Positions 2,480 through 31,996 of a DNA stretch of 32,000 bases are shown here, in pieces. The notes under the pieces are model-generated. The model ran no database searches, was not told where the DNA came from, and worked only from the letters and a program-made list of their open reading frames with translations. Origin of the DNA: Pyrodictium delaneyi (GTDB lineage: Archaea > Thermoproteota > Thermoprotei_A > Sulfolobales > Pyrodictiaceae); contig NZ_CP013011.1 in assembly GCF_001412615.1 (NCBI RefSeq), positions 210,001 through 242,000 of the forward strand, written 5' to 3'. A program made the translations under genes and the position numbers. Position 1 is the stretch's first letter. The number at the start of each line of letters is the position of its first letter.

Positions 2480-3061
2480 GTCTTGTCCTCACCTTGTAGA
2501 AAAGAAGCGGAGGCTACTCTAGTGTAGAGCTAAAGCCCCACGTCTACTACTCCGAAGACTCCAGCCTAATATCGGGGGTGTATCTCTGGTAGCCATCAGG
2601 GAGCGGGGTTTAGGCAGGGTCAGGTAGATATGCAGTGGAGTCTCGAGTACCTTGAGGCTACCACGATTCTATAATATCTTGGCATGGGATGGGCTAAGTG
2701 TCTTAGGTCTCGCCGGAACATCATCATAACCTAATCCATTACATTTCCTCCTGGTGGCAATCAATCGTCAATGACAACATTTACAGTCGCCTCCACCTTA
2801 TCAATTCGTAGAGGTCTGCACGGTGTGGAATGCGGCCATGATGTTGAGTCAATGAGTAGCCTCGGAGCTGGGCTTTTTCTAAGTCATGGATTATGATGGT
2901 GTTGTGACAGAATTTAATTTACAATAGTGAACTATAGCTTAGCGTGCTTGAATTTGGTGTTTAAATTCACCAGGATCTATCTCTGATGACAGCTGTCGAT
3001 GTTGCGTTACCTAGAAGTTTCCCAGCTCCAACGGTACTGATTCATAACTGATAGAGAACAG

Positions 3062-3116
3062 CCTTATAGTCCTAGCTCCTAGCAATACTGCTACCTTGTG
3101 TGGAGGCAGGGTGAGC
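3062..3116 (+). promoter_or_regulatory. Candidate promoter and 5' leader of the glycoprotein gene (TATA-like CCTTATAG, SD-like GGAGG / GGTGA)
   Basis: CCTTATAG lies at 3062-3069, about 50 nt upstream of ATG 3117. GGAGG is at 3102-3106 and GGTGA at 3110-3114. All of this sits at the end of a 616-bp AT-rich non-coding stretch (2480-3095). Confidence 0.3.
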
Positions 3117-5621
3117 ATGATGACGCGGGCTAGAGGGCTTCTAATCCTTGCTCTACTACTGGTTGCTACGTCGACAATAGCAGCAAGGGCAGCAGAAGTA
3201 GCAGTGGTAGATAGTGAGCCTCAGCCACCACAGCTCTTCAACGCGACATCGGTCTACAATGATTCTAGCGAGTTCGACGGCTATGCAGACATGGCGCTAG
3301 TCGTAGTAAACAAGACTTCTACCGGGGTTGATCTGATACTGGAGCTCAGTCAGCCACTACCCGATCCGGCGACCGAAACCGACCCTATAACCCGGCGTAT
3401 TGACGTTCCGGTTATACTCGGGCCTAAACCACCTATAGATGCGGATGCACAATCCTATGGCGTGACTATTTACTGTACAATAGAGTCGTCTCCGTCAGGG
3501 ACGACAAATACTAGCAGCCTTCCCGACACAGCTACTTGTCTGCTAGATACAAGCCGCGGAAAGATAGTAATCGGCATAAACATGTCGTCACCCGTGATTC
3601 CAACAGGAAACTTCTACATAACCATAGCTCCATGGGTAAATATAACGGTTATAGATGCCGTAGATAATGCAACGAATCTAGCAATAGATCCTCTTAACTC
3701 GACAACAGTAACAATAACCGTGGATGGTGATCCTTCGGATTGGAACGCTGTAGCTGGTTCACCTAACCTAATCTCTGTCGCGGACGCGGATTCTGTCAAT
3801 GAATACGACTTTGCTGATGTTGTAAACACGTCATATATAGCAATACTCCCGGGTAGCGGCTACTATACACTCTACGCTCTGGTAGAGTTGAATGGTACAT
3901 TGGGCGCGCCTTATGCGGTACCACCATATATTATGCTTTACATCAATGCATCCTATAGCTATAATAATGGAACGATAACAGGTGTTGAACCGCTCATACT
4001 TAGACTCGATAAGGACAACCTATGGATATACAATGCCTCTATGAGTCTAGTGCTAGGTCCTATTGCTAATGGTACTAGCTATTACAATATTAGTATGTCC
4101 GGTAAGTACATAGAGACCGGCGTCTATGAGCAGGCAATAGATGACGCCCTACGCGCCATCCTAAATCTAACGTCAACTGATACCCTAGATTCGTTGAACC
4201 TTACAATAACGGGGACCGAGATAGTTACGCTAATCAATGATAACCCCCTAGGTGCTGAGCTTAGGCCCGATCTACAGCCGGTATACATAGCTATAGCCCG
4301 TAGCCCAGAGAGCGGTGAAAGCTACTTTGTGAAGCCAGTGACCGAGTACTATAATGTCTGTATAGCAGCTGGCGACAGCTACCAGGTGAGCGGCGCAGTT
4401 ACGAACATATCACTGGTAAACACTGATACCACTAACGCGTGTATCTCAATCCTACTCTACAATACCAGCCCACTAGGCCTCGAGGAGCTAGGTATACCAG
4501 GCATAACGTTCAACGAGTTCTACTACATCTCGAACACTGGCGGCTCCAACCTATCTGTAATCCTCGACATAGCTAATACGACAGCCGCGCTCGAGGAACT
4601 AGCATGGCTCGGCCTAGGCCTGGACGCAATCAAAGCAGTACTCCTGCCGCTCAACGAGACCTACGCCGGCTATATCAACATGGATACAGCATCAACTGTT
4701 AACATGTCCACCTGGGTATTCGCCCACACCCCTGTAGCAGTGGTACGACCGAGCTTTACCACATCTACAGTAGTAAAGGGTAATATCGCGAGGCATGTGT
4801 ACACAGTCGAGAACCTTGACTACCTCTATCCTGTGTCCATAAGTATAGCTGCACCAGCAGACTATACTCTAAACGCTTCATTGCTAAACCTAGACTCTAT
4901 GGGGCAACCAGGGTCGCTGGCCTCCATAGAGGCTAGTATCGATACGAGTATACTAAGCCCAGGCTACTACGAGGCGCTCATAAACTTCACCGACACGGGC
5001 AGCGGTGCTACTGGCAGTGCTCGGATGATTACAATAGTCGCCCCAGAGACGGCTACCGTAGTCTCATCATTGATTAGCGGCACTGGGACTATACTAGTGC
5101 CAGATATAGATGCCTCACTTGACGTAAACTCCACCGATACCGTGAATGTGACCGTGATAACACTCAATACCACAGCCGAGGCCCTTCCCGGAAAGCCGAG
5201 AGCCAAGCTCATAGCGGAGAAGTCGTTCGACGTAATAGTGGACAACACAACGGCGATAAACACTATACTCGTCAAGGTACGCTATACTGACAGCGATGTA
5301 CAACGCTGGGGCGTCTACGAGGTCACTCTACGCCTCTATCGATGGGACCCAGTAGCCAAGAAGTGGATCAGGCTGAAAACAACTGGCGTAGACGTAGTGA
5401 ACAATGTGATATGGGCTGAGGTTCAGCCAGACGAGCTAGTAGGTGCTCCCATCGCCCCTGCTGGTAGCCCAGCGCAACTCGTAGGCGGTGAGCTAGAGCT
5501 ACCAGCAATGCCCACCGGCTCTAATGGTGGTATAAAGCCGGCTGTATTGCTGGCAGCCGGCTTTGCTGTAGTAGCTGCTATAGTGATGATGCGCCGGCAT
5601 ATGCGTCTAGGATTATCCTAG
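3117..5621 (+). CDS. Secreted, sequon-rich surface glycoprotein with a C-terminal membrane anchor (S-layer / envelope protein candidate)
   Basis: The ORF track gives 3096..5621 with a TTG start. I prefer in-frame ATG 3117, because MMTRARGLLILALLLVATSTIAARAAE has a signal-peptide-like basic/hydrophobic/AxA layout. I hand-counted 29 N-X-S/T sequons. The protein is T/S/N/I/V-rich. The extreme C-terminus, PAVLLAAGFAVVAAIVMM + RRHMRLGLS, is a TM helix plus basic tail. GC is clearly lower than in flanking genes. I recognised no specific family. Confidence 0.85.
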   Translation: MMTRARGLLILALLLVATSTIAARAAEVAVVDSEPQPPQLFNATSVYNDSSEFDGYADMALVVVNKTSTGVDLILELSQPLPDPATETDPITRRIDVPVILGPKPPIDADAQSYGVTIYCTIESSPSGTTNTSSLPDTATCLLDTSRGKIVIGINMSSPVIPTGNFYITIAPWVNITVIDAVDNATNLAIDPLNSTTVTITVDGDPSDWNAVAGSPNLISVADADSVNEYDFADVVNTSYIAILPGSGYYTLYALVELNGTLGAPYAVPPYIMLYINASYSYNNGTITGVEPLILRLDKDNLWIYNASMSLVLGPIANGTSYYNISMSGKYIETGVYEQAIDDALRAILNLTSTDTLDSLNLTITGTEIVTLINDNPLGAELRPDLQPVYIAIARSPESGESYFVKPVTEYYNVCIAAGDSYQVSGAVTNISLVNTDTTNACISILLYNTSPLGLEELGIPGITFNEFYYISNTGGSNLSVILDIANTTAALEELAWLGLGLDAIKAVLLPLNETYAGYINMDTASTVNMSTWVFAHTPVAVVRPSFTTSTVVKGNIARHVYTVENLDYLYPVSISIAAPADYTLNASLLNLDSMGQPGSLASIEASIDTSILSPGYYEALINFTDTGSGATGSARMITIVAPETATVVSSLISGTGTILVPDIDASLDVNSTDTVNVTVITLNTTAEALPGKPRAKLIAEKSFDVIVDNTTAINTILVKVRYTDSDVQRWGVYEVTLRLYRWDPVAKKWIRLKTTGVDVVNNVIWAEVQPDELVGAPIAPAGSPAQLVGGELELPAMPTGSNGGIKPAVLLAAGFAVVAAIVMMRRHMRLGLS

Positions 5622-7571: not shown

Positions 7572-7589
7572 GCTGGAGGCGGTTCCGTC

Positions 7590-7838
7590 TTGGTGTACAC
7601 GCGTGCGCTAGAGGAGGCCTACACAATGGCCCGGGGCGTAGAGCTGTCCTGCGGCAGAGTAGCAGAGCTAGAAGAGGCGCTAAGGGTTATCGAGGAGCTG
7701 ATGGAGCGGGGCGGTGGCGCCGAGGAGCTAGAGTATGCTGGAGCACTGCTAAGACAAGCTGGGGACGTGCTCCGGCTAAGAGGCTGCCTCGACTGGCACC
7801 TCCTAGTCCAAGCTGCGGACATCGTAGAGCATGCTTAA
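7590..7838 (+). CDS. Small hypothetical helical protein
   Basis: 82-aa ORF with a TTG start; ATG at 7626 is an alternative. E/L/A/R-rich and helical-looking, with no recognisable motif. It follows the hydrolase gene on the same strand. Confidence 0.35.
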   Translation: MVYTRALEEAYTMARGVELSCGRVAELEEALRVIEELMERGGGAEELEYAGALLRQAGDVLRLRGCLDWHLLVQAADIVEHA

Positions 7839-7942: not shown

Positions 7943-10285
7943 TTACTGAGTTCTAGCAGTCTGGTTTATACCACCCAATATCGTGTCCACTGCGGCGGCT
8001 ATGGCCGCGGCTACGGCGGCTGCCCGGAGCAGAAGCGGGCTGCCCAGCAGCGAAGCGGCGGCTGCGACGGCTATGAAGGGCCACGGCGTGTACCCGCCGC
8101 CCCGGGGCCCCGCGGCTAACAGCACTGCCATCGTGTCGGGGCTGTAGGCCGCCATGAGCGCGAGGAGCGCAGCGGGCCGGGCCTCGAGCAGCACAGCGGT
8201 GGCGGCGCCGGCCAGCGCGGCGGCCGCCGGCGTAGCAGCCACGGCTGCGGCTGCCCCGGCTCCCGCGCCATGGGCTAGCAGCGTGGCTAGGTGGAAGCCC
8301 GCTGCGAGGCCTAGCAGGTAGAGGGCTCGCCGGATCCGGCTCTCCTGGAGCCCAGCTAAGCCGGCGTAGACTGGGCTGGGGGCTAGGAGGCCGGCGAGGA
8401 GCCCGTCGACGAGCCCCGGGCCTGCCCTAGCGGCTGCTGCGAGTACGGGGGCGAACACGCCCGCGGGCCCGGTGTAGGCGAGCAGCCCCACACCGAACCA
8501 GGCGGCGGCCGTCTTAGCTAGCCTACGGCGGCCCTGCCAGGAGTGGATTACTGAGAACCTATAGCCCATTGTCCAGTAGAACACCACGGCGGCTGCTAGC
8601 AGGGCTAGCCGGGCGAGCTTGCCGGTGTCCGCGGCCACTGTGTATAGGAACGGCGCCTCGGCAGGGGACGTGAAGCCGGGCCACGGGTGCATACCGTGTA
8701 GCAGGGCGGAGGCCAGCGCGCCGGCAGCAGCGGCGGCTCCAGCTGTCCAGCGCAGCGCTGTCTCCGTGGCGAGGCAGTCCCGTAGCCCAGCCCAGCCGAG
8801 CCAGCGGGCGGCCTCAACGGCGAGGAGCGGGCTGACAGCGAGCACTATTCCGGAGAGCATGGAGAGCTGTACGCTGTAGAAGTTGTAGAGCGTATGGTTC
8901 CCCGCAGCGTAGACTAAGGCGTAGCCTGCGACTGCAGATGCTAGTGCAGCAGCCGCGAAGGCTTCCGCGTTCTTCCCCGTACAGCTCCCGATGCATGTGC
9001 TGAGCGCAGCTGCTGCGAGCCCGGCTAGGGAGACGAGGAGCGCGGGCAACGTGATCACCGGGTTGGAAGCAGCCACGATGAGCGGCCTGCCGTCGACGTA
9101 GTGGAGGATGAAGCCGGGCACGCCTAGCAGCAGGCCGAGGGGCGTGGTCGAGGGCGGGCCCTCCGCGGGCCTGCTGGTTGTGTGCCAGCGGAGCGAGCCC
9201 ACGACCTCGTCGAGCCAGGCCCCGGGCCCCATCCACTCTATGAACGGGATCCAGGAGGCGAGCACCACGGCTAGCGGCACGGAGAGGAGTACTAGGGTCT
9301 TGGCGGGGCCTAGGCCCCGGAGCCGCGCGTAGACGAGGAGCGCGGGGAGCACGAAGAGCCCCGTATACTTCGCCGAGCCCGCGAGCCCCGCTAGCAGGGC
9401 CGCGGCGAAGGGATGGCCGTAGAGGAGCGCCGCCACAGCTAGCGCGTCGAGGCTCGCGGCATAGATGTCGAGCATGCCGACGGCCGACATCGATTGGACG
9501 CTCTGGTCGAGGAGGGCGAGGGCTGCCGGCGCCAGGGCGAGGACCAGGGCCCAGCGGCTGCCTACCCGCCTCGCAGCCCAGTACGCGGTGGCCGCAACCG
9601 CGGCGAGGCCGAGGGCGCCGGCGGCGAAGCTCGCAGCGCGCCACACCCAGTAGCGGAACCCCAGGAGGTCTATCAGGGCGGCGAAGATGTACTTGACTAG
9701 CGGCGGGTGCTCCGTGTTGAGGTAGTTGTTGATATTCTCCTTGTCCGGCATCACGCCGGGGACGGCGTCCAGGAAGCACGTAGACACCTGGGGGAGGGAT
9801 GCAACGGCCTGGTGCTCGCCGAGCGGGGCCTCGACGAGGAGCGCGTGGATCTCGCTATACTGTCTCCCGAGTATCCGGGCTCCCGGCGCATGCTCGTGGA
9901 TGAGCAGGCTGGCCTCTGCGGGGCTACACTCCCCGGGATTATAGAACACGGTGTAGACGGCATAGCTGCTGTTGACCCGGGCTACTAGGTCCCAGCCGAG
10001 CACCTTCCGCGCCACGTTTATCGATGACGGGATGTACCATACCTCGTCGCTGATATAGTCCTCGACCCCCAGGGTCTTCGAGAGCCCGCCGTGGTACAGT
10101 GCTAGCAGCGACGCCAGGTACGCAGCAGCAACGACAGCCAGGAGGACCCGGCGGCTAGGCTGCCCACGCCAGTTGCTGGTGCCCGCCACACCTGCTCCTC
10201 CAGCTAGTCTGCCGGCTAGACCCCGTGCCGTCGTAAATGTAGCGTCCCAGGGGCCCAGCATATAGGCGCCTGAGGGAAGGTACAC
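7943..10285 (-). CDS. Polytopic GT-C glycosyltransferase, dolichyl-phosphate-mannose--protein mannosyltransferase-like (PMT_2 / GT39-like)
   Basis: 780-aa multi-pass membrane protein. It has a DE motif in the first extracytoplasmic loop (YISDEVWYIP) and the block NTEHPPLVKYIFAALIDLLG, which resembles the hPPLgKy signature of the PMT_2 family. There are many Ala/Leu/Gly-rich helices. GTG start at 10285; ATG at 10261 is an alternative. It is divergent from a Dol-P-Man synthase gene. Confidence 0.8.
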   Translation of the reverse strand: MYLPSGAYMLGPWDATFTTARGLAGRLAGGAGVAGTSNWRGQPSRRVLLAVVAAAYLASLLALYHGGLSKTLGVEDYISDEVWYIPSSINVARKVLGWDLVARVNSSYAVYTVFYNPGECSPAEASLLIHEHAPGARILGRQYSEIHALLVEAPLGEHQAVASLPQVSTCFLDAVPGVMPDKENINNYLNTEHPPLVKYIFAALIDLLGFRYWVWRAASFAAGALGLAAVAATAYWAARRVGSRWALVLALAPAALALLDQSVQSMSAVGMLDIYAASLDALAVAALLYGHPFAAALLAGLAGSAKYTGLFVLPALLVYARLRGLGPAKTLVLLSVPLAVVLASWIPFIEWMGPGAWLDEVVGSLRWHTTSRPAEGPPSTTPLGLLLGVPGFILHYVDGRPLIVAASNPVITLPALLVSLAGLAAAALSTCIGSCTGKNAEAFAAAALASAVAGYALVYAAGNHTLYNFYSVQLSMLSGIVLAVSPLLAVEAARWLGWAGLRDCLATETALRWTAGAAAAAGALASALLHGMHPWPGFTSPAEAPFLYTVAADTGKLARLALLAAAVVFYWTMGYRFSVIHSWQGRRRLAKTAAAWFGVGLLAYTGPAGVFAPVLAAAARAGPGLVDGLLAGLLAPSPVYAGLAGLQESRIRRALYLLGLAAGFHLATLLAHGAGAGAAAAVAATPAAAALAGAATAVLLEARPAALLALMAAYSPDTMAVLLAAGPRGGGYTPWPFIAVAAAASLLGSPLLLRAAAVAAAIAAAVDTILGGINQTARTQ

Positions 10286-10332
10286 GAAGTACTCAGAAGC
10301 ACTTCAGGAGACGCTGGCATGGGCGTCGAGGC

Positions 10333-11418
10333 ATGAGCGATGACATGGAGCCAGCGGTTTCGATAGTGGTCCCGACGTATAACGAGAGGGAGAACCTGCC
10401 CCGGCTACTAGAGGAGATAGACCGCGTACTCCGGGGCAGAGGCATAGACTACGAGGTCGTGGTAGTAGACGACGATAGCCCTGATGGCACGTGGAGGGTC
10501 GCCGAGGAGTACGCGGAGCGGGGCCTCCCAGTCCGCGTGGTGAGGAGGCGGGGAGAGCGGGGCCTCGGCAGCGCCATCGCCCGGGGGCTCCGCGTAGCCC
10601 GCGGCCGCTACATAGTGGTCATGGACGCGGATCTCCAGCACCCGCCGGAGGCTATCCCCCGGCTCCTCGAGGAGGCCCGGAGGAGCGGTGCGCACCTCGT
10701 AGTCGCGACCCGGTACGGCCGCGGGGGCGGCGTGGAGGGCTGGAGCCGTTTCCGCCTCCTGGTCTCTCGTGTGGCGAGCCTGCTGGCATACCTCCTACTC
10801 CCCGAGGCCAGGGCCACTAGCGACCCTATGAGCGGCTTCTTCCTGGTCTCCCGCGAGCTCGCAGCGAGGGCGCCGGAGCGGCCGCGGAGCTGGAAGATAC
10901 TCCTAGACCTCCTAGTCGAGGCCCGGGGCAGGGTCTCGGAGGTCCCCTATGTCTTCCGCCGCCGCGCTGCGGGCGAGAGCAAGCTCGGCCTCCGGGAGAT
11001 GCTGGACTACGTGCTCCACCTGCTTGAGCTCTCAGGCTACCGGCCCATCAAGTTCGCGGTTGTCGGCGCAACTGGCACGCTCGTCAACCTCGCAGTACTA
11101 AGGCTTCTCCACGGCGCGCTGGGCGCACCGCTCCCGCTCTCGTTCCTCGCAGCGTTCGAGGCATCACTGACCTGGAATTACCTGCTCCACGACGCGTGGA
11201 CCTTCCGGGGCATCCGGCCCCCAGGCGTACTCAATAAGCTACGGTACTGGCTACGGTACCACGCCGCCGCCCTAGGCGGCCTCGCAGCATACATGTCCGT
11301 GGGCATGCTGTTGACCACACTGGGCCTAGACTACATGCTCGCGGGGCTGGCAGGGATAATCGCCGGCTTCCTAGCCAACTACACGCTCTCCCTCTACAAG
11401 GTGTGGAACAGCCGTTGA
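10333..11418 (+). CDS. Dolichol/polyprenol-phosphate mannosyltransferase (GT2, Dpm1-like) with a C-terminal GtrA-like membrane domain
   Basis: VSIVVPTYNERENLP, VVVVDDDSPDGT and VVMDADLQHPPE are classic GT2/DPM1 motifs. The C-terminal ~120 aa form 4 TM helices beginning KFAVVGATGTLVNLAVL (GtrA-like). Confidence 0.9.
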   Translation: MSDDMEPAVSIVVPTYNERENLPRLLEEIDRVLRGRGIDYEVVVVDDDSPDGTWRVAEEYAERGLPVRVVRRRGERGLGSAIARGLRVARGRYIVVMDADLQHPPEAIPRLLEEARRSGAHLVVATRYGRGGGVEGWSRFRLLVSRVASLLAYLLLPEARATSDPMSGFFLVSRELAARAPERPRSWKILLDLLVEARGRVSEVPYVFRRRAAGESKLGLREMLDYVLHLLELSGYRPIKFAVVGATGTLVNLAVLRLLHGALGAPLPLSFLAAFEASLTWNYLLHDAWTFRGIRPPGVLNKLRYWLRYHAAALGGLAAYMSVGMLLTTLGLDYMLAGLAGIIAGFLANYTLSLYKVWNSR

Positions 11419-15742: not shown

Positions 15743-15830
15743 CGTCGAATAGCGTCTTCGACTGTTGCTGGAGGGGAAGGACTCTTCTACCGCCCTACGG
15801 CGACAAGTTGATCCAACATGGAGGAACGGC

Positions 15831-16880
15831 ATGGCGCGAGGCAGCGGTATAGCTGGGTGGGGTGCCTACATACCCCGCTACCGGGTAAAGGCCAGCGAGA
15901 TAGCGAGGGTCTGGGGCTGGGAGCCAAGCGTCCCCAGGGGCCTCGGAGTCGAGGAGAAGGCCGTCGCGGGCCCTGACGAGGACTCGGTCACGATAGGGGT
16001 CGAGGCGGCCCGCAACGCTATCCGCCGCGCCAGCGTAGACCCCACGAGGATCAAGGCAGTCTTCTTCGGCACAGAGTCTAAGCCCTACGCGGTCAAGCCC
16101 TCCGCGACGATAGTAGCCGAGGCTCTGGGCATAACACCGGAGACCATGGCCTCCGACTTGGAGTTCGCCTGCCGCGCGGCGAGCGAGGGCATGAGGGCGG
16201 GCTTCGCCCTCATAGAAGCCGGGTACATGGAGTACGCGCTGGCCATTGGCGCCGATACGGCGCAGGCTAACCCCGGCGACGTCCTGGAGTTCACTGCTGC
16301 GAGTGGCGGCGCAGCCTTCGTCCTAGGCCCTGCGGGCGACAGCGTCGCGGTCCTCGAGGGCGTATACACCTACGCTACCGACACGCCAGACTTCTGGCGG
16401 GGCGCTCACAGCCCCTACCCGCTCCACGGCGAAGGCTTCACCGGCGAGCCGGCCTACTTCCACCACATAGAGAGCGCGGTCAAGGGGCTCATGGAGTCCC
16501 TGGGGCTCCGTCCAGACGACTTCGACTACGCGGTCTTCCACCAGCCTAACGGCAAGTTCCCGCTCCGCGTGGGCAAAAAACTAGGCTTCCCCAAGGAGAA
16601 GATCCTCCCCGGCCTAGTCACCCCAATGATAGGCAACACGTACAACGGGAGCGCGCTCCTCGGCCTAGCCCGGGTCCTCGACCAGGCTAAGCCCGGGCAG
16701 CGGATCCTAGTAGCCCCATTCGGCAGCGGCGCGGGGAGCGACGCCTACAGCTTCATAGTGACCGATAAGATAGAGGAGCGCAGAGACCGGGCCCCAAAGG
16801 TTGACGACTACATCGAGGCCAAGCGCTACATCGACTACGCAGCCTACGCGAAGATGAGGAGCCTCTACGTACGCATCTAG
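15831..16880 (+). CDS. Hydroxymethylglutaryl-CoA synthase (archaeal type)
   Basis: [15 protein letters not shown]-terminus, active-site Cys context [13 protein letters not shown], and HQPNGKFP / GNTYNGS motifs typical of archaeal HMGCS. ATG 15831 lies 5 nt after GGAGGA (15820-15825). The ORF track TTG at 15765 is probably an over-extension. Confidence 0.92.
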
Positions 16881-16901
16881 CCCCAATGGGAGGTGGACCC
16901 C

Positions 16902-18056
16902 GTGACGCGCGTCTACATCGCGGGCGTAGGCATGGTCCCCATCGGCCGCCACTACGGCAAGAGCCTCCTAGACCTCGCCGCAGAGGCAGCGTTCAAGGCA
17001 CTCGACGAGGCCGGCCTGGAGCCAGACGTGGTCGTGGTCACGAACATGCTTGCTAGCAGGCTCCAGGAGCAGGACAACCTCGGCGCCTACATAGCCTCGG
17101 GCATCGGGCTCCGCGGCAAGCCGGCACTCCGCGTCGAGGCAGCCTGCGGCAGCGGTGGCGCAGGCGTCTACACGGCCTACAGCATGGTGCGCTCGGGGCT
17201 CGCCCGTAGCGTCCTCGTGGTAGGCGTCGAGAAGATGACAGATTACCCGACATCCACAGTCACCTCCGCGCTAGCACAGGCAGCCGACGCCGAGTACGAG
17301 CTGTTCTACGGCGCGAGCTTCACGGGCCTCAACGCGCTGATGATGCGCTACTACATGGAGCGGCACAATGTCGACAGAGACACTATGAGCGAGTGGCCGG
17401 TGATGATGCACGAGAACGCCCTCAGCAACCCCTACGCGCAGATACGCCGTCGCATAACACGCGAAGACGTAGCCCGGAGCCAGGTAGTCGCGGACCCGAT
17501 AAGGCTGCTCGACAGCAGCCCCATCGGCGACGGCGCGGCAGCAGTACTCCTCGTCTCCGAGGAGGCAGCAGCGGAGCTCCCCGAGAAGCCTAGCGTCTAC
17601 ATAGCCGGCGCCGGCATGGCCACGGACACGGTGGAGCTCTCGAACCGTGAGGCCCTAGACCGCATACCTGCGGCCAGGGCGGCGGCTGAGCAGGCCTACC
17701 GGATGGCAGGCGTAGGCCCAGGCGACATAGACGTGGCGGAGATACACGACGCCTTCACGATAAACGCGGTGCTCCTCATAGAGGAGCTGGGCTTCGCCCC
17801 CTACGGGGAGGCGGCCCGGCTGCTAGCAGAGGGCCGCTTCCACCCAGGCGACCGGCCAACGCTCAACCCCAGCGGCGGCCTGAAGGCCCGCGGCCACCCC
17901 GTAGGAACCACCGGCGTCTACCAGATAGCCGAGGTGACTATGCAGCTGCGCGGCGACTTCCCCGGCGTACGAGTCGACGGCGCCGAGACAGGATTGGCGG
18001 TCAACATGGGAGGCGACGGCTCCACACTCATCGCCCACGTACTCCGCCGCGTGTAA
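16902..18056 (+). CDS. Acetyl-CoA acetyltransferase (archaeal thiolase)
   Basis: VYIAGVGMVPIG N-terminus, catalytic Cys in VEAACGSGG, C-terminal NPSGGLKARGHPVGTTG and NMGGDGS. The ORF track GTG 16893 lies inside the SD-like GGGAGGTG (16888-16895). In-frame GTG 16902 is 6 nt downstream of that motif and is preferred. Confidence 0.92.
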   Translation: MTRVYIAGVGMVPIGRHYGKSLLDLAAEAAFKALDEAGLEPDVVVVTNMLASRLQEQDNLGAYIASGIGLRGKPALRVEAACGSGGAGVYTAYSMVRSGLARSVLVVGVEKMTDYPTSTVTSALAQAADAEYELFYGASFTGLNALMMRYYMERHNVDRDTMSEWPVMMHENALSNPYAQIRRRITREDVARSQVVADPIRLLDSSPIGDGAAAVLLVSEEAAAELPEKPSVYIAGAGMATDTVELSNREALDRIPAARAAAEQAYRMAGVGPGDIDVAEIHDAFTINAVLLIEELGFAPYGEAARLLAEGRFHPGDRPTLNPSGGLKARGHPVGTTGVYQIAEVTMQLRGDFPGVRVDGAETGLAVNMGGDGSTLIAHVLRRV

Positions 18057-18080
18057 AAGCCGTAGGGAGGTGTCCCCAGA

Positions 18081-18521
18081 ATGACCCTTCGCATGTCCCC
18101 GGTGCGTGTCTGGAGAGAGCGTATCCCCCGCTACCGGCTAGTAGGCAGAGAGTGCAAGAAGTGCGGGCGCCGCCACTACCCGCCGCGCCCCGCTTGCCCC
18201 CACTGCGGCTCCAGGGAGCTCGTAGACGTCGAGCTCCCCCAGACGGGCACAGTGGAGACCTACACAGTGATATACACCGTGATGGACGGGTTCCGCGACA
18301 GGGCACCCCTCGTGATAGCCCTAGTAAAGCTCGACGACGGTACGAGAGTACTAGCACCGATAACAGACGCTGAGCCAGGCGAGGTCAAGACCGGGATGAG
18401 GGTGGAAGCAGTACTACGCCGCATAAGGCGCGACGGCGAGCACGGCGTGATAGCTTACGGTGTAGCGTTCCGTCCAGCCCTATTTAGCGGGAGGAAAGCC
18501 GACAGCCAGCAACAAGCCTGA
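18081..18521 (+). CDS. DUF35 zinc-ribbon/OB-fold protein (scaffold partner of the archaeal thiolase/HMG-CoA synthase complex)
   Basis: Four-Cys zinc ribbon [20 protein letters not shown], followed by an OB-like segment ([10 protein letters not shown]...[13 protein letters not shown]). ATG lies 8 nt after GGGAGGTG (18065-18072). It sits directly after the thiolase gene. Confidence 0.9.
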
Positions 18522-18583
18522 GGGTTTTCCACCCGGGCCCTAGGGGCCCGCGGCTCCTCTTACGCAGAGGGCTATCCCGGAGG

Positions 18584-19903
18584 ATGCATCTAATAGGCCC
18601 TGGTAGCTGCGTGGCTTCTCTGAGGGGCTGCTTCTTGGCTGGTGACGCCGAGTCCTGGAATGAGAAGCTCGAGGAGGTAGTCCAGGGGATAGTCGAGGGC
18701 AGGATAAAGCTACATGAGGCAGACAAGATCCTGGGCAATGCTAACGCTGCTGCTCTCGCGCGCCGGCTCGCGCTCGAGCGCATGCTCGGCGTAGGCCTCT
18801 CGAGCATCGGCAGTACTATACTTGACTTCGAGGAGCTCGTGGGTAGGAACATCGAGAACCCTATCGGCGCAGTCCAGGTGCCTGTGGGCGTTGTGGGGCC
18901 GCTCCGCGTCCACGGCGAGTACGCCCGCGGAGACTTCTACGTTCCCCTAGCCACTACCGAGGGCGCTCTCGTGGCCAGCATTAATCGGGGCGCGAAGGCT
19001 GTCACGCTGAGCGGCGGGGCACGGGCCCGCGTAGTCTACGACGGTATGGCGCGTGCCCCCGCCTTCTGGACCCCAAGCGTAGACGAGGCTGTGCGCTTCA
19101 TCCAGTGGGTGCGGGAGAGAATAGAGGATATCCGCAGAGAGGCGGAGTCCACGACCCGGCACGGCAGGCTCGTGGAGATACAGCCATTCCTCGCGGGTAA
19201 CATCGTCTGGCTCCGCTTCGTCTACAGCACGGGCGACGCTATGGGCATGAACATGGCTACTATAGCTACTGACCGGGCTGCGGAGTGGATCCTCAACAAC
19301 TACCCGGGCACCGTGAGGCTCGTCGCTATCAGCGGCAATATGTGTACCGACAAGAAGCCGGCCATGATCAACATGCTGCTAGGCCGCGGCAAAACCGTCA
19401 TCGCGGAGGCGGTGATAAAGAGAGATGTAGCGCTAAAGGTGCTCAAGGCGCCGCCAGAGGAGATAGACGCTGTGAACCGTGTCAAGAACCTCCTAGGCAG
19501 CGCCCGCGCCGGAAGCCTAAGCTACAACGCACACTTCGCCAACATCATCGCCGCGATATTCATCGCGACGGGGCAGGACGTCGCCCAGGTTGTGGAGAGC
19601 AGTATGGGCTACACCTGGACAGAGGTGCGGGACGGAGACCTCTACATCTCCGTGACCCTGCCAAGCCTAGAAGTGGGCACCGTGGGAGGCGGGACTAGGC
19701 TCCCCACCCAGCGCGAGGCCCTCGCGATGCTGGGCGTTGCCGGCGGCGGAGACCCGCCTGGCACAAACGCGAGAAAGCTAGCAGAGATAATTGCGGCTAC
19801 AGTGCTCGCGGGAGAGCTTAACCTCCTAGCAGCCCTAGCCGCCAACGAGCTCGCCCGCGCCCACAGGCTCCTAGGCCGCGGCGAAGCCCGTAACAAAGGC
19901 TAG
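18584..19903 (+). CDS. hmgA: HMG-CoA reductase, class I
   Basis: [39 protein letters not shown] and EVGTVGGGT motifs. The start is uncertain: ATG 18584 abuts GGAGG with no spacer. In-frame GTG 18611 or TTG 18635 (8 nt after GAGGGG) are alternatives. Confidence 0.92.
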
Positions 19904-27852: not shown

Positions 27853-29058
27853 CTATAGTGGGGACAGCGCTTCTTTTCTCGGCTCTGGGCCTAGCCCTGG
27901 CTCCCGTGGATGCTGGAGGATTACGCCTCCCGGTTCTGGCCGATAGACTGGCGGGTTCTCGACCGGATCCTCCTCTAGGAATAGCGCCGCGTCTAGGTCC
28001 ACGTACCTTGTAACCGGGCTCGTCAATGCTGGATGCAGTGCCTGCGCTATGCCCAGCCCCGTCTCCACCATGCAGCCCCACATAGCCTCGAGCCCGTGGG
28101 CCTCAAGCATCGCGGCGGCTCGCGCCGCCCTAAGCGGGCCCCCTATCTTCGCTATCTTGATGTTCACGACGTCCACCGCGCCCATGGCCGCCACCCTGGC
28201 TATCTCCTCGGGGCTCCGTGCCGTCTCGTCAGCTGCTACCGGGGCCTCGACAGCACTCCTCACGGCCGCCAGGTCCTCGATCCTAGCTGCCGGGACCGGC
28301 TGCTCTACCAGCTCCAGGGCTGTGCCGAGGCTCCGCTCAAGCCGGCGTATCACCCATATTGCCTGCTTCCTCGTCCAAGCCTGGTTAGCGTCCACCCTTA
28401 TCCTCGCCCTACCCCGAGCAGCCTCGTAGACGGTCTCCGCCAGGAGCACGTCGTCCTCAACGCTCCCAGTCCCAAGCTTCACCTTGAGCACGCGGAAGCC
28501 CTGCACACCGGGAAGCGGGAAACCAGGATCCTCTGGGGGCTCGCGGCGGAGCCCGACGAGGTACTCGACAGCCTCTATGAAGGCGTCCCGGCGGGGCCCA
28601 CTACCCCTACGGAGTTCCTCTAGAGCCTCTTGGTCAGGTATCGAGACAGTATAGTCGGTCTCGAGGCTATTGTACACCCTGCCGCCGAGGAGCGTGTAGA
28701 GCGGCGTGTCGAGTACACGGGCAGAAGCGTCAAGCACGGCAGCCTCCAGCGCGGCACGGGCCGAGCTGAAGCCCGGTGCACCCGTGTGTACACGGCGGAG
28801 CGCCTCGCCCAGTTCGCCCGGAAGATCTAGCCCCTCAAGCCTCCTCGCCACAGTCTCTACGTAGGCCTTCACTGCCGCCGTATTCTCCCAGGTAACCCTA
28901 GGAGCAGGCGCTGCCTCACCCCAGCCCCTCGTACCGTCGCTTAGCTTAAGCTCCACCACGATGCTCTCCATCGTGGCTGACGCCGCGTAAGCTATGCGGA
29001 AGACGCCCCGTAGTCTCGCCTGAAGCTTGTAGACCCGAACCCGCTCTATCCGCGGCAA
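27853..29058 (-). CDS. Enolase-superfamily racemase/epimerase, muconate-lactonizing-enzyme subgroup (dipeptide epimerase / N-acylamino-acid racemase-like)
   Basis: KxK (LKVKLG). Metal ligands in RVDANQAW, LVEQP and VAADE. Second catalytic Lys in VNIKIAKIGG. WGCMVETGLG follows. TTG start. Confidence 0.9.
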   Translation of the reverse strand: MPRIERVRVYKLQARLRGVFRIAYAASATMESIVVELKLSDGTRGWGEAAPAPRVTWENTAAVKAYVETVARRLEGLDLPGELGEALRRVHTGAPGFSSARAALEAAVLDASARVLDTPLYTLLGGRVYNSLETDYTVSIPDQEALEELRRGSGPRRDAFIEAVEYLVGLRREPPEDPGFPLPGVQGFRVLKVKLGTGSVEDDVLLAETVYEAARGRARIRVDANQAWTRKQAIWVIRRLERSLGTALELVEQPVPAARIEDLAAVRSAVEAPVAADETARSPEEIARVAAMGAVDVVNIKIAKIGGPLRAARAAAMLEAHGLEAMWGCMVETGLGIAQALHPALTSPVTRYVDLDAALFLEEDPVENPPVYRPEPGGVILQHPREPGLGPEPRKEALSPL

Positions 29059-29083
29059 GGCCTAGGCCCCGCTAGCCGCCAAA

Positions 29084-29100
29084 AGCAGCTATGGGCTGCT
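29084..29100 (-). terminator. Hairpin plus T-run after the permease gene (terminator-like)
   Basis: The minus strand reads AGCAGC-ccata-GCTGCT followed by TTT. This lies 35 nt after the permease stop and before the racemase start. Confidence 0.3.
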
Positions 29101-29134: not shown

Positions 29135-30778
29135 CTACTGGCTTGGAGTACCCTTGTCCTCCTTAGACGTGTAGAGATAGTGCCACCTCCTACTGTGCTC
29201 TAGCCATCGCTTCTCCTCGCCAGGCCTAGCGAAGTGTATGTGAAGGGGGTGCTGGGGTGTAAGGCCCGCCTCTTCGCGTATACGTCTAGCCTCTTCCTCA
29301 GCCTCTCTACGCGTCCGGGGAGTCCTCGATGTGACTACAAGCACATCTACGTCGTGCGCTCGGTGGAGTTCGCCACGCGCTACGCTCCCAACCAAGTATA
29401 CCTTGGCGTCGTGAAACCTCCTAACAATGACTGCTACTATGCGTGGTACCCAGGTGGCCCAGTTCCTGATGTTCTCCTCTCTTAGGTGTAGCTTGTAGTC
29501 GATGTACTCTGCTATCTCCCTACCAGTCAGCACCCGGTAGACGTATTCTACAGTAAAGGAGCCTGCAAGTAGTAGGATGAACACGGTCACTTGGCGAGGG
29601 TCTAGAGTAGCTGTACGGTAGATGAGAAGCGCTAACGCCATAACGGTGGCCAGCGCCCCGGCGCCTGCCACTAGTGGGTTAACCCTCGCCTCTCTACGAA
29701 GCCGGAGGGCTGCAACATTGACGGCTGTGAATATCAGGAGGAAGCCTGCACTACCAGCCGTAGATATAGCCTCAAGACTTGCAGCCTCGGCGAGGACGAG
29801 CGAGAGTAGACTAATTATAGCTAGGCCCTCAGGCGCTTGTCGCCATATCCTCCGCCCCACGCTGGCAGGCAACTGGCCATACTTGGCAACCATGTAGCTT
29901 ATCCTAGCAGTACCATAGAGCGTCGCGTTTATTGCAGAACTGGTAGAGGCTAGGGCGGCAGCGACAACAATGCCGAAGCCTAGCTCTCCTAGAGCAGGCT
30001 TAGCGGCTTCCGCGAGCGCGTAGTCACGTGCCCGCATAACCTCCTCGGGAGAGAGTGTACCTGCAGCAACAAGAGCTACCATGACGTATATAGCTGTCAC
30101 GACCAGTACAGCGGCGAAGAACGCTCTAGGCAGGACACGTGGATCCTCGACATCAGCGGCAGCGTTAGCTATGAGTTCGAACCCCTCGTACGCTAAGAAT
30201 ATTATCATACCGCCTGCTACTATGTTGACTAAGCTGGGCCACTGGGAGGGGCTAAACCTACCCCATTCTACAAACCCGAGTCCAGCGCCGGCAACTACGA
30301 CTAGTATAGCAAGCTTGAAGAATACGAGAGCATCTTCAACTCTTCCAGTTACTACAGCGCCGAGCGCGTTCAGAAACGTGAATATAGCTATAGCGAGGGC
30401 GATAAACACGTGCCTAAGGAGGACAGCTTCGCCAAACAGGCTTGCCGCGTAACTCCCAAAGGCGTACGCGTAGAGCGCAATCATCACTATGTAGCTCGTA
30501 AGCAACATAATATTGAGCCCGCCGGCAAGAATGCCGCGGCCAAAAGCCCTCACAATATACTCTATCGTCCCGCCTTCGCTCGGATAGCGGATGGAAAGCT
30601 TCGCGTAAGAATACGACGTAGCCAGAGCCACTAAGCCTGCGAGGAGAAACGCTACGGGTGCAGCAGTACCAGCAAGCTGGAGACTAAGCCCCAGAACGGC
30701 GAAAATACCGCCACCTATCATTCCGCCAACTCCTATGCTGAATGCCTCTATGAAGCCTATCTTCCTCCTGTCTGGCAC
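29135..30778 (-). CDS. APC-superfamily amino-acid permease fused to a C-terminal minimal nucleotidyltransferase (MNT / NTP_transf_2-like) domain
   Basis: The first ~430 aa are a typical APC permease (GVGGMIGGGIFAVLG, multiple TM helices, FLAYEGFELIANAA). The last ~115 aa read VYLVGSVARGELHRAHDVDVLVV...HIHF, i.e. the G-S-x(9-13)-D-x-D pattern of Pol-beta-type minimal nucleotidyltransferases. No stop codon separates the two parts. GTG start lies 9 nt after GGAGG. Confidence 0.88.
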   Translation of the reverse strand: MPDRRKIGFIEAFSIGVGGMIGGGIFAVLGLSLQLAGTAAPVAFLLAGLVALATSYSYAKLSIRYPSEGGTIEYIVRAFGRGILAGGLNIMLLTSYIVMIALYAYAFGSYAASLFGEAVLLRHVFIALAIAIFTFLNALGAVVTGRVEDALVFFKLAILVVVAGAGLGFVEWGRFSPSQWPSLVNIVAGGMIIFLAYEGFELIANAAADVEDPRVLPRAFFAAVLVVTAIYVMVALVAAGTLSPEEVMRARDYALAEAAKPALGELGFGIVVAAALASTSSAINATLYGTARISYMVAKYGQLPASVGRRIWRQAPEGLAIISLLSLVLAEAASLEAISTAGSAGFLLIFTAVNVAALRLRREARVNPLVAGAGALATVMALALLIYRTATLDPRQVTVFILLLAGSFTVEYVYRVLTGREIAEYIDYKLHLREENIRNWATWVPRIVAVIVRRFHDAKVYLVGSVARGELHRAHDVDVLVVTSRTPRTRREAEEEARRIREEAGLTPQHPLHIHFARPGEEKRWLEHSRRWHYLYTSKEDKGTPSQ

Positions 30779-30907
30779 GAATGGATGCCTCCTTTGTTGC
30801 CTCTAATTTTGTACCTCAAAATTGTTTTCTTTCATTATTATTTAGCTGCTTATTGATTTTAGGCTAGAATTGAAAATTTCTATTCACGTGTTGTATAACA
30901 CACTAAG
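30779..30907 (-). promoter_or_regulatory. AT-rich spacer with promoter-like elements for the permease gene
   Basis: 129 bp of markedly AT-rich DNA lie between the DUF1611 stop and the permease start. The minus strand shows a small hairpin GTGTT-atac-AACAC plus ATTTTC just after the upstream stop. TATA-like TAAATAATAAT follows ~60 nt before the GTG, then GGAGG (plus-strand CCTCC 30788-30792). Confidence 0.35.
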
Positions 30908-31996
30908 TTATTCACCGATAATTCTATCTACTATAGCTTTCACACCAGTCCTTAAAGGATCCAATGCGGGCACCATATAAGTCTCACTATATTCTCTTTC
31001 GATTCTCTTAGCCTCGTTTATCGTATACATGCTAGTATTCAGCGTTATCCCCGCCAGCACCGCGTTAGGGTAGGGGTTCAGCGCTGTCAAGTAGGTTAGC
31101 TCTTCGCCGGGCTCTGGGTTACGTAGGGGCTTCCATGCGTGGCTGAATGCTGCCCGCCAGCGGCGGCCAGGCACATGCGCCACGACTATGTGTGTGGGAG
31201 AGGCGCCACGCAGTATGCCCAGAGACACGTGGCCGTAAGCTTCATGAGTTATCGCCGCCTGGCCCTCGACCACAGCCACCTCGCAGCCCTGCTCGTAGGC
31301 CTCGACTATCACCTGCTCGAGCGCTCCGGCTACGAAGTCGCTCGGCACAGCGTCCACGACTAAGCCACGTGCGCCGAGGAGCAACATCGTCTGCCCAGTG
31401 CCGATCATACAAGCTTTTACGCTGCGGCGCTCGAGTTCTTTGTAGATAGTATAGGTGGCGATATTCTTCCCCGCTTCACAGTCTGTCCCGGCTATAAGGA
31501 CGCGCTTCATCCTGGTGCCGAGTACACGTCCATCCCAGACGCGGAAGTAACGGGGATCAGGCTTACGTACATCGACTATCCTGGCACCACCCTTCTCGGC
31601 GGCAGCCCGTAGCTCGGGGTCATCGGATAGGAAGGTGTGGAGCCCGCTGTAGACGTCGAGACCCATCTCAAGCGCGTCGCGGATGTCCCGCTTCCACTCC
31701 TCTGGCAGCCGGCCACCTACCGGAGCAGCTCCAAGAATCAAGGCCTCAGCGCCTTTCTCGACCGCCTCCCTAAGCCCCTGCACTATGGGGATGCCCTTCC
31801 GGCCCAGGCCAATGAATTCGCCAGCATCACGACCGGCGTTAAACGGATCTATAACTGCGACGAGGTCCCATAGGAGCCCGCCGTCAAATATTACGAGATC
31901 GTGCCCTGTCTTACCTTCCTCCCGGCCATAGGCTCCAGGAGCATATATAGCTGCCCTTCTCCGGCCCTCATGGTACACCATAGGCACAGCTACCAC
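30908..31996 (-). CDS. DUF1611-family protein (DgcN-like putative D-glutamate N-acetyltransferase family)
   Basis: AAIYAPGAYGREEGKTGHDLV, VAVIDPFNAGRDAGE, IPIVQGL, ALILGAAPVGGRLPEEW, GLDVYSGLHTFLSDDPEL, IVDVRKP and the P-loop-like AGTDCEAGKNIAT match my memory of the DUF1611 (PF07755) alignment. The start is near the window edge: GTG 31996 or ATG 31981. The frame is still open at 32000. Confidence 0.85.
   Translation of the reverse strand: MVAVPMVYHEGRRRAAIYAPGAYGREEGKTGHDLVIFDGGLLWDLVAVIDPFNAGRDAGEFIGLGRKGIPIVQGLREAVEKGAEALILGAAPVGGRLPEEWKRDIRDALEMGLDVYSGLHTFLSDDPELRAAAEKGGARIVDVRKPDPRYFRVWDGRVLGTRMKRVLIAGTDCEAGKNIATYTIYKELERRSVKACMIGTGQTMLLLGARGLVVDAVPSDFVAGALEQVIVEAYEQGCEVAVVEGQAAITHEAYGHVSLGILRGASPTHIVVAHVPGRRWRAAFSHAWKPLRNPEPGEELTYLTALNPYPNAVLAGITLNTSMYTINEAKRIEREYSETYMVPALDPLRTGVKAIVDRIIGE

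Follow-up and report, generated by a model that had tools for sequence, protein, structure and literature searches.

Why does an amino-acid permease of Pyrodictium delaneyi end in a minimal nucleotidyltransferase (MNT)? Few proteins are as abundant in hyperthermophile genomes as MNT domains, and the only job demonstrated for the minimal free-standing ones is the AMPylation of HEPN toxins. We addressed this question in a 32-kb stretch of DNA (the window, 32,000 nucleotides at its full length) in which an earlier note, made from the sequence alone, had pointed to a permease continuing in frame into an MNT domain with no HEPN gene beside it.

A permease and a nucleotidyltransferase in one frame

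The gene occupies positions 29135..30778 of the minus strand, stop codon included, and forms a single uninterrupted frame of 547 aa that begins with GTG. The segment singled out by the earlier note (29135..29485) corresponds to residues 432-547 plus the stop codon. Both the permease and the nucleotidyltransferase Pfam domains were significant within this one frame, so that the fusion is real. A putative Shine-Dalgarno sequence, AAAGGAGG (30788..30795, minus strand), ends 9 nt before the GTG, and the 129-bp intergenic region upstream of the gene is AT-rich. The 76-bp gap past the stop codon contains a short hairpin (AGCAGC/GCTGCT) followed by a T-run (29081..29100, minus strand), a possible terminator.

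An indel that removed a stop codon between two genes, or an internal start yielding a free MNT from the same frame, had been put forward as alternatives. The idea is prompted by the rarity of MNT fusions, and we found no other support for it. The fusion protein is recorded, 100% identical, on two contigs (270 kb and 2.02 Mb), one of them from P. delaneyi strain Hulk (NCQP01000006.1). Of the 120 best homologues, which are 55-72% identical, 118 have a recorded PF01909 match, the same architecture being found down to 55% identity; the remaining two (P0104 and P0106) are shortened and still keep the GS, DxD and D-I-H residues. We rejected the indel artefact because of this conservation and of the identical protein on two contigs; a split arrangement, with separate permease and MNT genes, was present in no locus. 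The MNT tail and the frame across the junction are under purifying selection, with dN/dS values of 0.09-0.19 in the tail vs 0.025-0.08 in the membrane domain. The internal start fared no better, as the linker contains no conserved Met or start codon and no usable pair of Shine-Dalgarno sequence and start. Its sole Shine-Dalgarno-like element, AGGAGG, encodes an Arg-Arg pair, and neither ATG nor GTG comes after it; a TTG 21 nt downstream is the closest codon of start type, and translation from there would cut into strand beta-1. An artefact or a second product from this gene is thus hardly credible.

The membrane part (aa 5-423; 29510..30766, minus strand) was identified as an ApcT-type APC permease domain with 12 TM helices by PF13520, phmmer, Foldseek and hydropathy. 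AA_permease_2 (PF13520) covered aa 7-393 with 119.1 bits against a gathering cutoff of 27, and phmmer aligned aa 5-423 (E 1e-62) with ApcT of Methanocaldococcus jannaschii (MJ0609; PDB 3GIA/3GI8/3GI9), an APC-superfamily member that transports amino acids with broad specificity and H+ coupling. The full-length AlphaFold2 model (pLDDT 90.7, pTM 0.90) retrieved ApcT 3GIA in Foldseek with an E-value of 5e-24, a target TM-score of 0.92 and 34% identity; the overall comparison of ApcT with the permease domain gave target TM-scores of 0.90-0.92 and 33-34% identity, with 12 TM helices in each. The best NCBIfam match of the permease, TIGR00909 (2A0306), reached 168.6 bits, under its trusted cutoff of 556.8. 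Lys155 of the permease, invariant in 79 homologues, aligns with Lys158 of ApcT, the proposed proton-coupling residue and the Lys that has been mutated in that protein. Judging from these likenesses, the permease is most likely a proton-coupled ApcT-like amino-acid transporter, an activity that is predicted here.

The two proteins also have in common a motif, E..YR..T.R, at the end of TM12. The ApcT chain stops a few residues past this motif, whereas the P. delaneyi protein has about 124 further aa that run into a domain of enzyme type; in the phmmer alignment, the fusion point coincides with the natural C-terminus of ApcT. The hydropathy profile of the fusion protein displays 12 TM segments, and the even-numbered (cytoplasmic) loops of the permease are rich in K/R. 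This charge pattern places the tail, by prediction, on the cytoplasmic side of the membrane, in agreement with what the earlier note had expected.

The tail and its metal site

In the complete protein, NTP_transf_2 (PF01909) covers aa 451-521 with 45.3 bits against a gathering cutoff of 21 (E 1e-11), and the E-value was 4e-12 when the tail was searched alone. The MNT is complete and spans residues ~424-536. Rather than a free-standing protein of ~80-150 aa, it forms the last 124 aa, at the C-terminus, of a membrane protein that is 547 aa long. The junction and the first two MNT helices (aa 424-455; 29414..29509, minus strand), which AlphaFold2 places at 428-438 and 440-454 at the N-terminal side of the domain, contain D427, L430, E434, W440 and W443, all of them conserved. 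A W-containing N-terminal helix is also present in free-standing MNT relatives, and that of the tail resembles the helix of the free archaeal MNTs. The catalytic core (aa 456-536; 29171..29413, minus strand), supported by PF01909, AlphaFold2, Foldseek and dN/dS, contains strands at 459-463, 477-482, 512-517 and 532-536.

The tail, with helices alternating with strands, has a pLDDT of 92-95 within the full-length model; modelled in isolation, it has a pLDDT of 87 overall and above 95 in the core. Foldseek matched the isolated tail to the MNT structures 1YLQ, 2RFF, MntA in 7BXO/7AER, HI0073 (1NO5) and 8XEO, with probabilities of 0.99-1.0 and target TM-scores of 0.53-0.69 for 1YLQ, 2RFF, 7BXO, 1NO5 and 8XEO. 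We found no significant sequence match of the tail to any solved PDB structure. According to the models, the tail adopts the MNT fold. Together with the Pfam match and an exact GSX10DXD motif, this bears out the assignment made in the earlier note, and the strings that it had quoted are present (VYLVGSVARGELHRAHDVDVLVV at aa 460-482 and HIHF at aa 513-516).

The GSX10DXD nucleotide/metal-binding motif, defined experimentally for MntA (PMC7641770), is matched by G464-S465 ... D476-V-D478 (29345..29389, minus strand). All of 120 homologues have G464, D476 and D478, and position 465 is occupied by S or G. In MntA, this motif and D71 together with two Mg2+ AMPylate a tyrosine of HepT, and residues of HepT complete the ATP pocket of MntA (PMC7641770). 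From the aligned strand and the spacing of the motif, we infer that the equivalent of D71 is position 513, the predicted third metal ligand, located in H513-I514-H515 (29234..29242, minus strand). P. delaneyi has His513 where MntA has its third metal-binding Asp, a departure that had gone unmentioned, and its MNT lacks the third acidic ligand. Of the 120 homologues, 82 have D and 38 have H at position 513; nothing else occurs there, and the NJ tree shows at least 13 switches between the two. H515 is H in 119 homologues and a gap in one. His513 may still bind metal, and the presence of His instead of Asp could lower or alter the catalysis of the P. delaneyi MNT. The Asp/His alternation represents a ready-made natural experiment at the metal site.

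This alternation bears on a different role for the tail, in which the MNT only binds nucleotide or pairs two transporters and controls gating allosterically without transfer chemistry. The occurrence of His as third ligand in 38 of the 120 members, P. delaneyi included, is in favour of such a role, and so are the lack of any conserved acceptor or partner gene (see below) and the presence, among the structural neighbours, of LeuT-fold carriers whose cytoplasmic domains bind nucleotide, namely KimA with c-di-AMP (8B70) and NKCC1. KimA and the SLC12 member NKCC1 indeed have the same membrane fold and a C-terminal cytoplasmic domain that regulates transport, although the folds of these domains are unrelated to the MNT and they are not transferases. 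On the other hand, position 513 never changed to Asn, Ser, Ala or Glu over all these switches, and DxD retains its two Asp and GS its Gly without exception. Such constraint is the expectation for a working two-metal site and argues against a mere binding pocket, which is usually more tolerant. The conserved catalytic motif is compatible with an enzymatic or NTP-binding role, proves no activity, and would also fit an NTP sensor without transfer. We consider control by binding or pairing alone to be rather unlikely.

Distribution, neighbourhood and origin of the fusion

We found the fusion in five archaeal groups, the Pyrodictiaceae, other Desulfurococcales, Acidilobaceae, Archaeoglobi and Hydrothermarchaeota. 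The species census used a single peptide pattern, E[VI]YLVGS[VIL]AR, and is non-exhaustive, missing even the AKVYLVGSVAR of the window. As judged from the sequences, the fusion is old and conserved in many vent archaea. It is vertically stable and located outside mobile-element contexts.

An exhaustive search with the tail recovered only a single family of fused permeases. Nearly all the other matches were free MNTs of roughly 70-170 aa, the exception being an MNT-HEPN fusion. The nearest free MNTs (30-40% identity to the tail) occur in HEPN(PF05168)-MNT operons, and the tail therefore looks like a domesticated antitoxin-type MNT.

No HEPN gene was detected in the window by Pfam (E up to 10 on unassigned ORFs), and a home-made HEPN profile run against all window ORFs of at least 45 aa gave no convincing HEPN. 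Its sole match, at 7572..7835, scored 9.6 bits and was rejected, its translation being without the Rx4-6H motif. In addition, no HEPN gene adjoins the fusion orthologues, either in five annotated contexts or in 38 species-representative loci, in a neighbourhood survey that picked up the positive controls (L041 and L043). The claim that the fusion has no adjacent HEPN partner thus stands for the window and extends to about 40 loci. All-against-all BLAST clustering of the ORFs flanking 40 loci revealed no conserved neighbour at all, the flanks sharing just the fusion gene and its shadow ORFs. The DUF1611/DgcN-like and MR_MLE flanking genes were dismissed as conserved context, since they occur in the P. 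delaneyi genome only, and so was membership of a defence system, for which PADLOC yielded weak generic MNT matches only. An acceptor or target may be encoded outside the 32-kb window.

These results weigh on the possibility that the tail is a membrane-anchored antitoxin, which would AMPylate a HEPN toxin encoded elsewhere, the fusion tethering or titrating this activity at the membrane. The partnership of its nearest free relatives with HEPN genes would suit such a role, hyperthermophilic archaea are very rich in HEPN/MNT modules, and MNT antitoxins work enzymatically and not through tight binding. However, toxin-antitoxin partners are almost always adjacent, and the loci without an adjoining HEPN come from distant lineages; the stability and strong conservation of the fusion outside mobile-element contexts also speak against it, as does the score of the NCBIfam model MntA_antitoxin (NF047752), which matched the fusion with 15.7 bits for a cutoff of 60. 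An antitoxin acting in trans appears distinctly improbable.

Possible roles of the tail and known precedents

We tentatively favour the reading that the tail acts in cis on an ApcT-like transporter, as an NTP-dependent module that is regulatory or (auto)nucleotidylylating. One polypeptide would combine a proton-coupled ApcT-like transporter with a complete MNT at its cytoplasmic C-terminus, the latter probably derived from the MNT half of an archaeal HEPN-MNT ("class II") two-gene module whose HEPN partner was lost. Having presumably retained its NTP/divalent-metal site (GSX10DXD plus Asp or His as third ligand), the tail would bind Mg/Mn-NTP and most probably pass an NMP (e.g. AMP) to a hydroxyl of the transporter itself, of a second protomer or of a recruited soluble protein, thereby coupling amino-acid uptake to the nucleotide or energy state of the cell. 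In free MNT systems, the HEPN protein completes the nucleotide pocket and provides the acceptor tyrosine; here, the cytoplasmic face of the transporter would stand in for it. The pTM of the full-length model (0.90) hints that the tail is docked on the transporter in a defined way.

A bolder version seems very unlikely to us: the transporter face would replace HEPN and a transport-coupled MNT would tag the cargo or the carrier with an NMP at each transport cycle. Should the cargo be the acceptor, this would amount to vectorial "group modification" by a secondary carrier, for which we know of no example among APC transporters. Modification of the cargo has also to be weighed in a simpler form, in which the MNT, like the aminoglycoside and lincosamide nucleotidyltransferases that modify small molecules, would nucleotidylylate the imported compound on a hydroxyl during its exit from the carrier. 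Hydropathy and the model would position the MNT right where the carrier opens to the cytoplasm, and the tail has a weak sequence and fold likeness to ANT(9)-type adenylyltransferases, of 16-19 bits, however, for a cutoff of 340. The nucleotidyltransferases that act on small molecules contain an additional domain for substrate binding, which the tail lacks, and no downstream pathway gene is conserved beside the fusion. Moreover, ApcT-type carriers transport ordinary amino acids, and to our knowledge there is no O-nucleotidylylation pathway for these compounds. We regard this form of cargo modification as highly improbable.

The favoured reading, regulation in cis, can be compared with several known systems. 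MntA of the type VII HepT/MntA system and the archaeal class II HEPN(PF05168)/MNT modules share PF01909, the fold and the exact GSX10DXD with the tail. Unlike the MNTs of these systems, the tail has no HEPN partner, is not a small free protein and has His as third ligand, and the fusion gene, unlike the HEPN/MNT modules, is outside a mobile or variable two-gene context. An analogy for action in cis is provided by the fused MNT-HEPN protein FhepTA, for which self-oligoAMPylation was shown (PMC13000451). In FhepTA, the MNT is covalently joined to its own target, the HEPN RNase, whereas the fused partner of the P. delaneyi MNT is a membrane transporter and no RNase. In the Hailong system (PDB 9DBH/9DBJ), a small Pol-beta-type nucleotidyltransferase, HalB, controls a membrane effector, HalA. 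HalB is the best PDB sequence match of the tail, with a marginal, non-significant E-value of 0.02; in contrast to the fusion, Hailong consists of two separate proteins, is found in a defence context and makes an oligonucleotide product.

Domestication of MNT modules has given rise to regulatory enzymes that modify proteins, GlnE among them (PMC3710099). GlnE and GlnD belong to the same enzyme superfamily as the tail and use nucleotidylylation as a reversible metabolic switch; the NCBIfam likeness of the tail to the GlnE/GlnD type is marginal, at 11 bits. They are large soluble multidomain enzymes that act via separate targets, whereas the P. delaneyi MNT is fused to the carrier, and we know of no fusion of GlnE or GlnD to a carrier. 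In the GlnD-GlnK-AmtB system, a transporter is controlled through a nucleotidylylated protein.

The fusion family would then represent an MNT parted from HEPN and long held on the cytoplasmic end of a nutrient carrier, with its catalytic motif intact. If active, the tail would amount to an enzymatic switch built directly into a secondary transporter of prokaryotes, and would clearly exemplify the domestication of a toxin-antitoxin component for physiology. Since the family is compact, the membrane part has a close homologue of solved structure (ApcT) and the source organisms are thermostable, biochemistry and structure determination should be feasible.

The GlnD-GlnK-AmtB precedent means that the remark in the earlier note that nothing of this kind had been described needs qualifying. 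It holds for the literature, insofar as our full-text search recovered no paper describing the permease-MNT fusion, an early mention being possible in Aravind and Koonin (1999). It does not hold for the databases, in which the architecture is already annotated and has been present since the first genome record of Archaeoglobus fulgidus (AE000782); one source names an orthologue "amino acid transporter/predicted nucleotidyltransferase".

The permease-MNT fusion and its distribution

The gene at 29135..30778 (-), with a GTG start and a TAG stop, encodes a 547-aa protein in which an ApcT-type APC permease and a C-terminal minimal nucleotidyltransferase (MNT; the tail, ~aa 424-547) share one frame, as claimed in the earlier note. 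The strings it quoted are located at aa 460-482 and 513-516, and both Pfam domains were significant: AA_permease_2 at aa 7-393 (119 bits) and, in the profile check the note had proposed for the tail, NTP_transf_2 (PF01909) at aa 451-521 (45.3 bits, cutoff 21, E 1e-11).

The note had also considered that an indel might have removed a stop between two genes. A sequencing or assembly indel is refuted by the identical protein recorded on two contigs (2.02 Mb and 270 kb, the latter being NCQP01000006.1 of Pyrodictium delaneyi strain Hulk), by the conserved architecture and by the lack of a split version. The 120 top homologues are 55-72% identical, and 118 of them have PF01909 on record, nearly all of these together with PF13520 and ~510-585 aa long; among them are Archaeoglobus fulgidus, A. 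veneficus, A. sulfaticallidus, Geoglobus, Pyrodictium occultum, Pyrolobus fumarii and Pyrofollis. A species scan (one genome per species, a single conserved peptide pattern as query) yielded 38 relatives, 35 of which match from the TM12/linker region on, like the fusion, and none of which showed a two-gene version. An artefact, or an internal start, is scarcely credible. The scan relatives belong to Pyrodictiaceae, other Desulfurococcales, Acidilobaceae, Archaeoglobi and Hydrothermarchaeota, all hyperthermophilic archaea; one further contig (JALXEF010000170.1, tail at 4001..4390) was binned as a bacterium of candidate division WOR-3, which points to wrong binning or to a bacterium that acquired the gene.

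Searched exhaustively with HMMER, the tail by itself gave 97 matches. The fused family was represented by three 50%-identity representatives and fragments, and nearly all the others were free MNTs (~70-170 aa, 25-54% identity), with one MNT-HEPN fusion (P0160); the permease-MNT fusion thus looks like a single compact family. Databases already hold both Pfam domains precomputed for these proteins, under source names such as "amino acid permease", "DNA polymerase beta domain protein region" and "amino acid transporter/predicted nucleotidyltransferase", and the A. fulgidus copy was present in the first genome record of that species (AE000782), hence the architecture itself is catalogued and not new. 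A full-text search, with one early paper outside its reach, found no paper discussing the fusion, which is unmentioned in the large comparative papers covered, PMC3710099 among them. The fusion is real, ancient, constrained and unexplained.

Carrier and tail

Residues 5-423 align to ApcT of M. jannaschii (MJ0609; phmmer, E 1e-62), and ApcT structures matched the AlphaFold2 full-length model (79 homologues in the alignment, mean pLDDT 90.7, pTM 0.90) with target TM-scores of 0.90-0.92. Lys155, aligned with ApcT Lys158, is invariant across the family. The protein has the features of an ApcT-like APC carrier but scores under the TIGR00909 cutoff of NCBIfam. TM12 ends in a motif common to the fusion and ApcT (E411..Y414-R415..T418..R420), a few residues past which the ApcT chain stops, so that the extra domain starts where an ApcT-type carrier would naturally end. 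Twelve TM segments by hydropathy, with K/R-rich loops at the N-terminus, TM2-3, TM8-9 and TM10-11, predict a cytoplasmic C-terminus, in line with the location the note had expected for the MNT.

Modelled in isolation, the tail reached a core pLDDT >95, and its predicted fold matched solved MNTs, the top matches being AF0614 (1YLQ), Sulfolobus MNT (2RFF), 8XEO, HI0073 (1NO5) and MntA from MntA-HepT complexes (7BXO, 7AER, 6M6W); a sequence search for a close solved structure found none. The tail has an exact GSX10DXD motif (G464-S465 ... D476-x-D478), experimentally essential for AMP transfer by MntA, where D71 serves as a third carboxylate and coordinates the second Mg2+ (PMC7641770). The corresponding strand in the tail is H513-I-H515, and position 513 is probably equivalent to D71 judging from the aligned strand and the motif spacing. 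G464, D476 and D478 are invariant in the 120 homologues and H515 is His in 119 (a gap in one); position 513 alternates between Asp (82) and His (38), which takes at least 13 switches on a neighbour-joining tree. That position 513 changes so often yet admits only these two metal-binding residues argues for a metal ligand that is still functional. Most defining features of MNTs are found in the tail, the exceptions being the third carboxylate and the small free protein. In two homologues of 497-498 aa (P0104 and P0106) the tail is drastically trimmed with GS, DxD and D-I-H retained, which may mark the minimal functional core. In gene pairs whose synonymous sites are not saturated, dN/dS was 0.09-0.19 for the tail versus 0.025-0.08 for the membrane domain, values indicating clear purifying selection on the tail.

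Origin and possible role of the tail

Three scan matches cover the MNT part alone and are free MNT genes: L041 (Ignicoccus pacificus), L043 and L044. In the first two, the MNT gene overlaps the end of a HEPN (PF05168) gene, an order termed "class II HEPN/MNT", common in hyperthermophilic archaea and biochemically untested (PMC7641770). At L041 (CP006868.1, 3563..4029) the HEPN consists of two overlapping ORFs matching the N- and C-terminal halves of PF05168, possibly a frameshifted HEPN beside an intact MNT. The free MNTs from the scan resemble the tail in having a W in the N-terminal helix and a strand of the form [D/E]-x-H. The claim that no HEPN adjoins the fusion held: none was found in the window, nor beside the fusion in A. 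fulgidus, A. veneficus, P. fumarii, P. delaneyi Hulk and a metagenomic relative, nor by phmmer in the 38 species loci, where the L041 and L043 controls were recovered. When all flanking ORFs were clustered, no neighbour of any sort proved conserved. The most fitting reading of the tail is a domesticated class II MNT, now without an adjacent HEPN.

Both testable features of HepT/MntA modules are missing, namely the adjacent HEPN and the NF047752 match (15.7, cutoff 60). The fusion is therefore not to be classed as an MntA antitoxin, to which it may be chemically alike; a membrane-tethered antitoxin acting on a distant HEPN is quite improbable. Minimal nucleotidyltransferases are incomplete: in MntA-HepT it is HepT that contributes the residues completing the ATP pocket, and the acceptor Tyr as well (PMC7641770). 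A long-standing proposal makes HEPN the subunit that binds the substrate for MNTs, and through domestication MNT modules have become regulatory enzymes that modify proteins, GlnE for example (PMC3710099); self-AMPylation in cis is known from a fused MNT-HEPN protein (PMC13000451). Here the carrier is the sole constant companion of the MNT, and the full-chain pTM of the model hints that the tail docks on it in a fixed way. Based on this companionship, these precedents and the hint of docking, we tentatively favour a cis-acting regulatory module, at a little short of an even chance. What lies beyond a conserved NTP/metal site on the cytoplasmic face we infer at each step: with metal-NTP bound, the tail would most likely pass an NMP to the carrier, to a second protomer or to a recruited protein, which would link uptake to nucleotide or energy status. 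Nucleotidylylation of the cargo is very unlikely. The GlnD-GlnK-AmtB circuit is a conceptual relative of the fusion, as is HalB-HalA of Hailong, whose similarity to the tail is marginal. KimA and NKCC1, LeuT-fold carriers with nucleotide-binding tails, are others; that the tail is similarly a non-transferring NTP sensor, or a dimeriser, is unlikely but the most serious competitor to the cis-acting module.

Genomic surroundings

By sequence reading, AAAGGAGG lies 9 nt 5' of the GTG start, with an AT-rich spacer of 129 bp beyond it, and a short hairpin of six base pairs (AGCAGC/GCTGCT; 29081..29100 (-)) followed by a T-run lies 3' of the TAG, in the 76-bp gap separating the fusion gene from the epimerase gene. 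Hairpin, T-run and spacer suggest that the fusion gene may be transcribed on its own. The genes on either side, on the same strand at 27853..29058 and 30908..31996 (both (-)), encode an enolase-superfamily protein and a DUF1611 protein. The top NCBIfam match of the DUF1611 protein is N-acetyltransferase DgcN (217 bits, under the 480 cutoff); for the other protein, L-Ala-D/L-Glu epimerase and N-acetyl-D-Glu racemase DgcA rank first, both under cutoff. This may be a cluster for the salvage of D-amino acids or dipeptides, which would hint at the local substrate; this arrangement was absent from all other loci examined.

Elsewhere in the window, the archaeal gene set for the early mevalonate pathway forms a tight cluster at 15765..19903 (+), comprising HMG-CoA reductase, a thiolase, an HMG-CoA-synthase-like protein and a DUF35-type OB-fold/zinc-ribbon protein. 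Composition swings strongly, from 47-49% GC at 3001..5000 to 67-71% at 8001..11000, the rest being ~57-65%; these two segments hold an 841-aa ORF (3096..5621) and a 780-aa ORF (7943..10285), respectively, both without a Pfam match.
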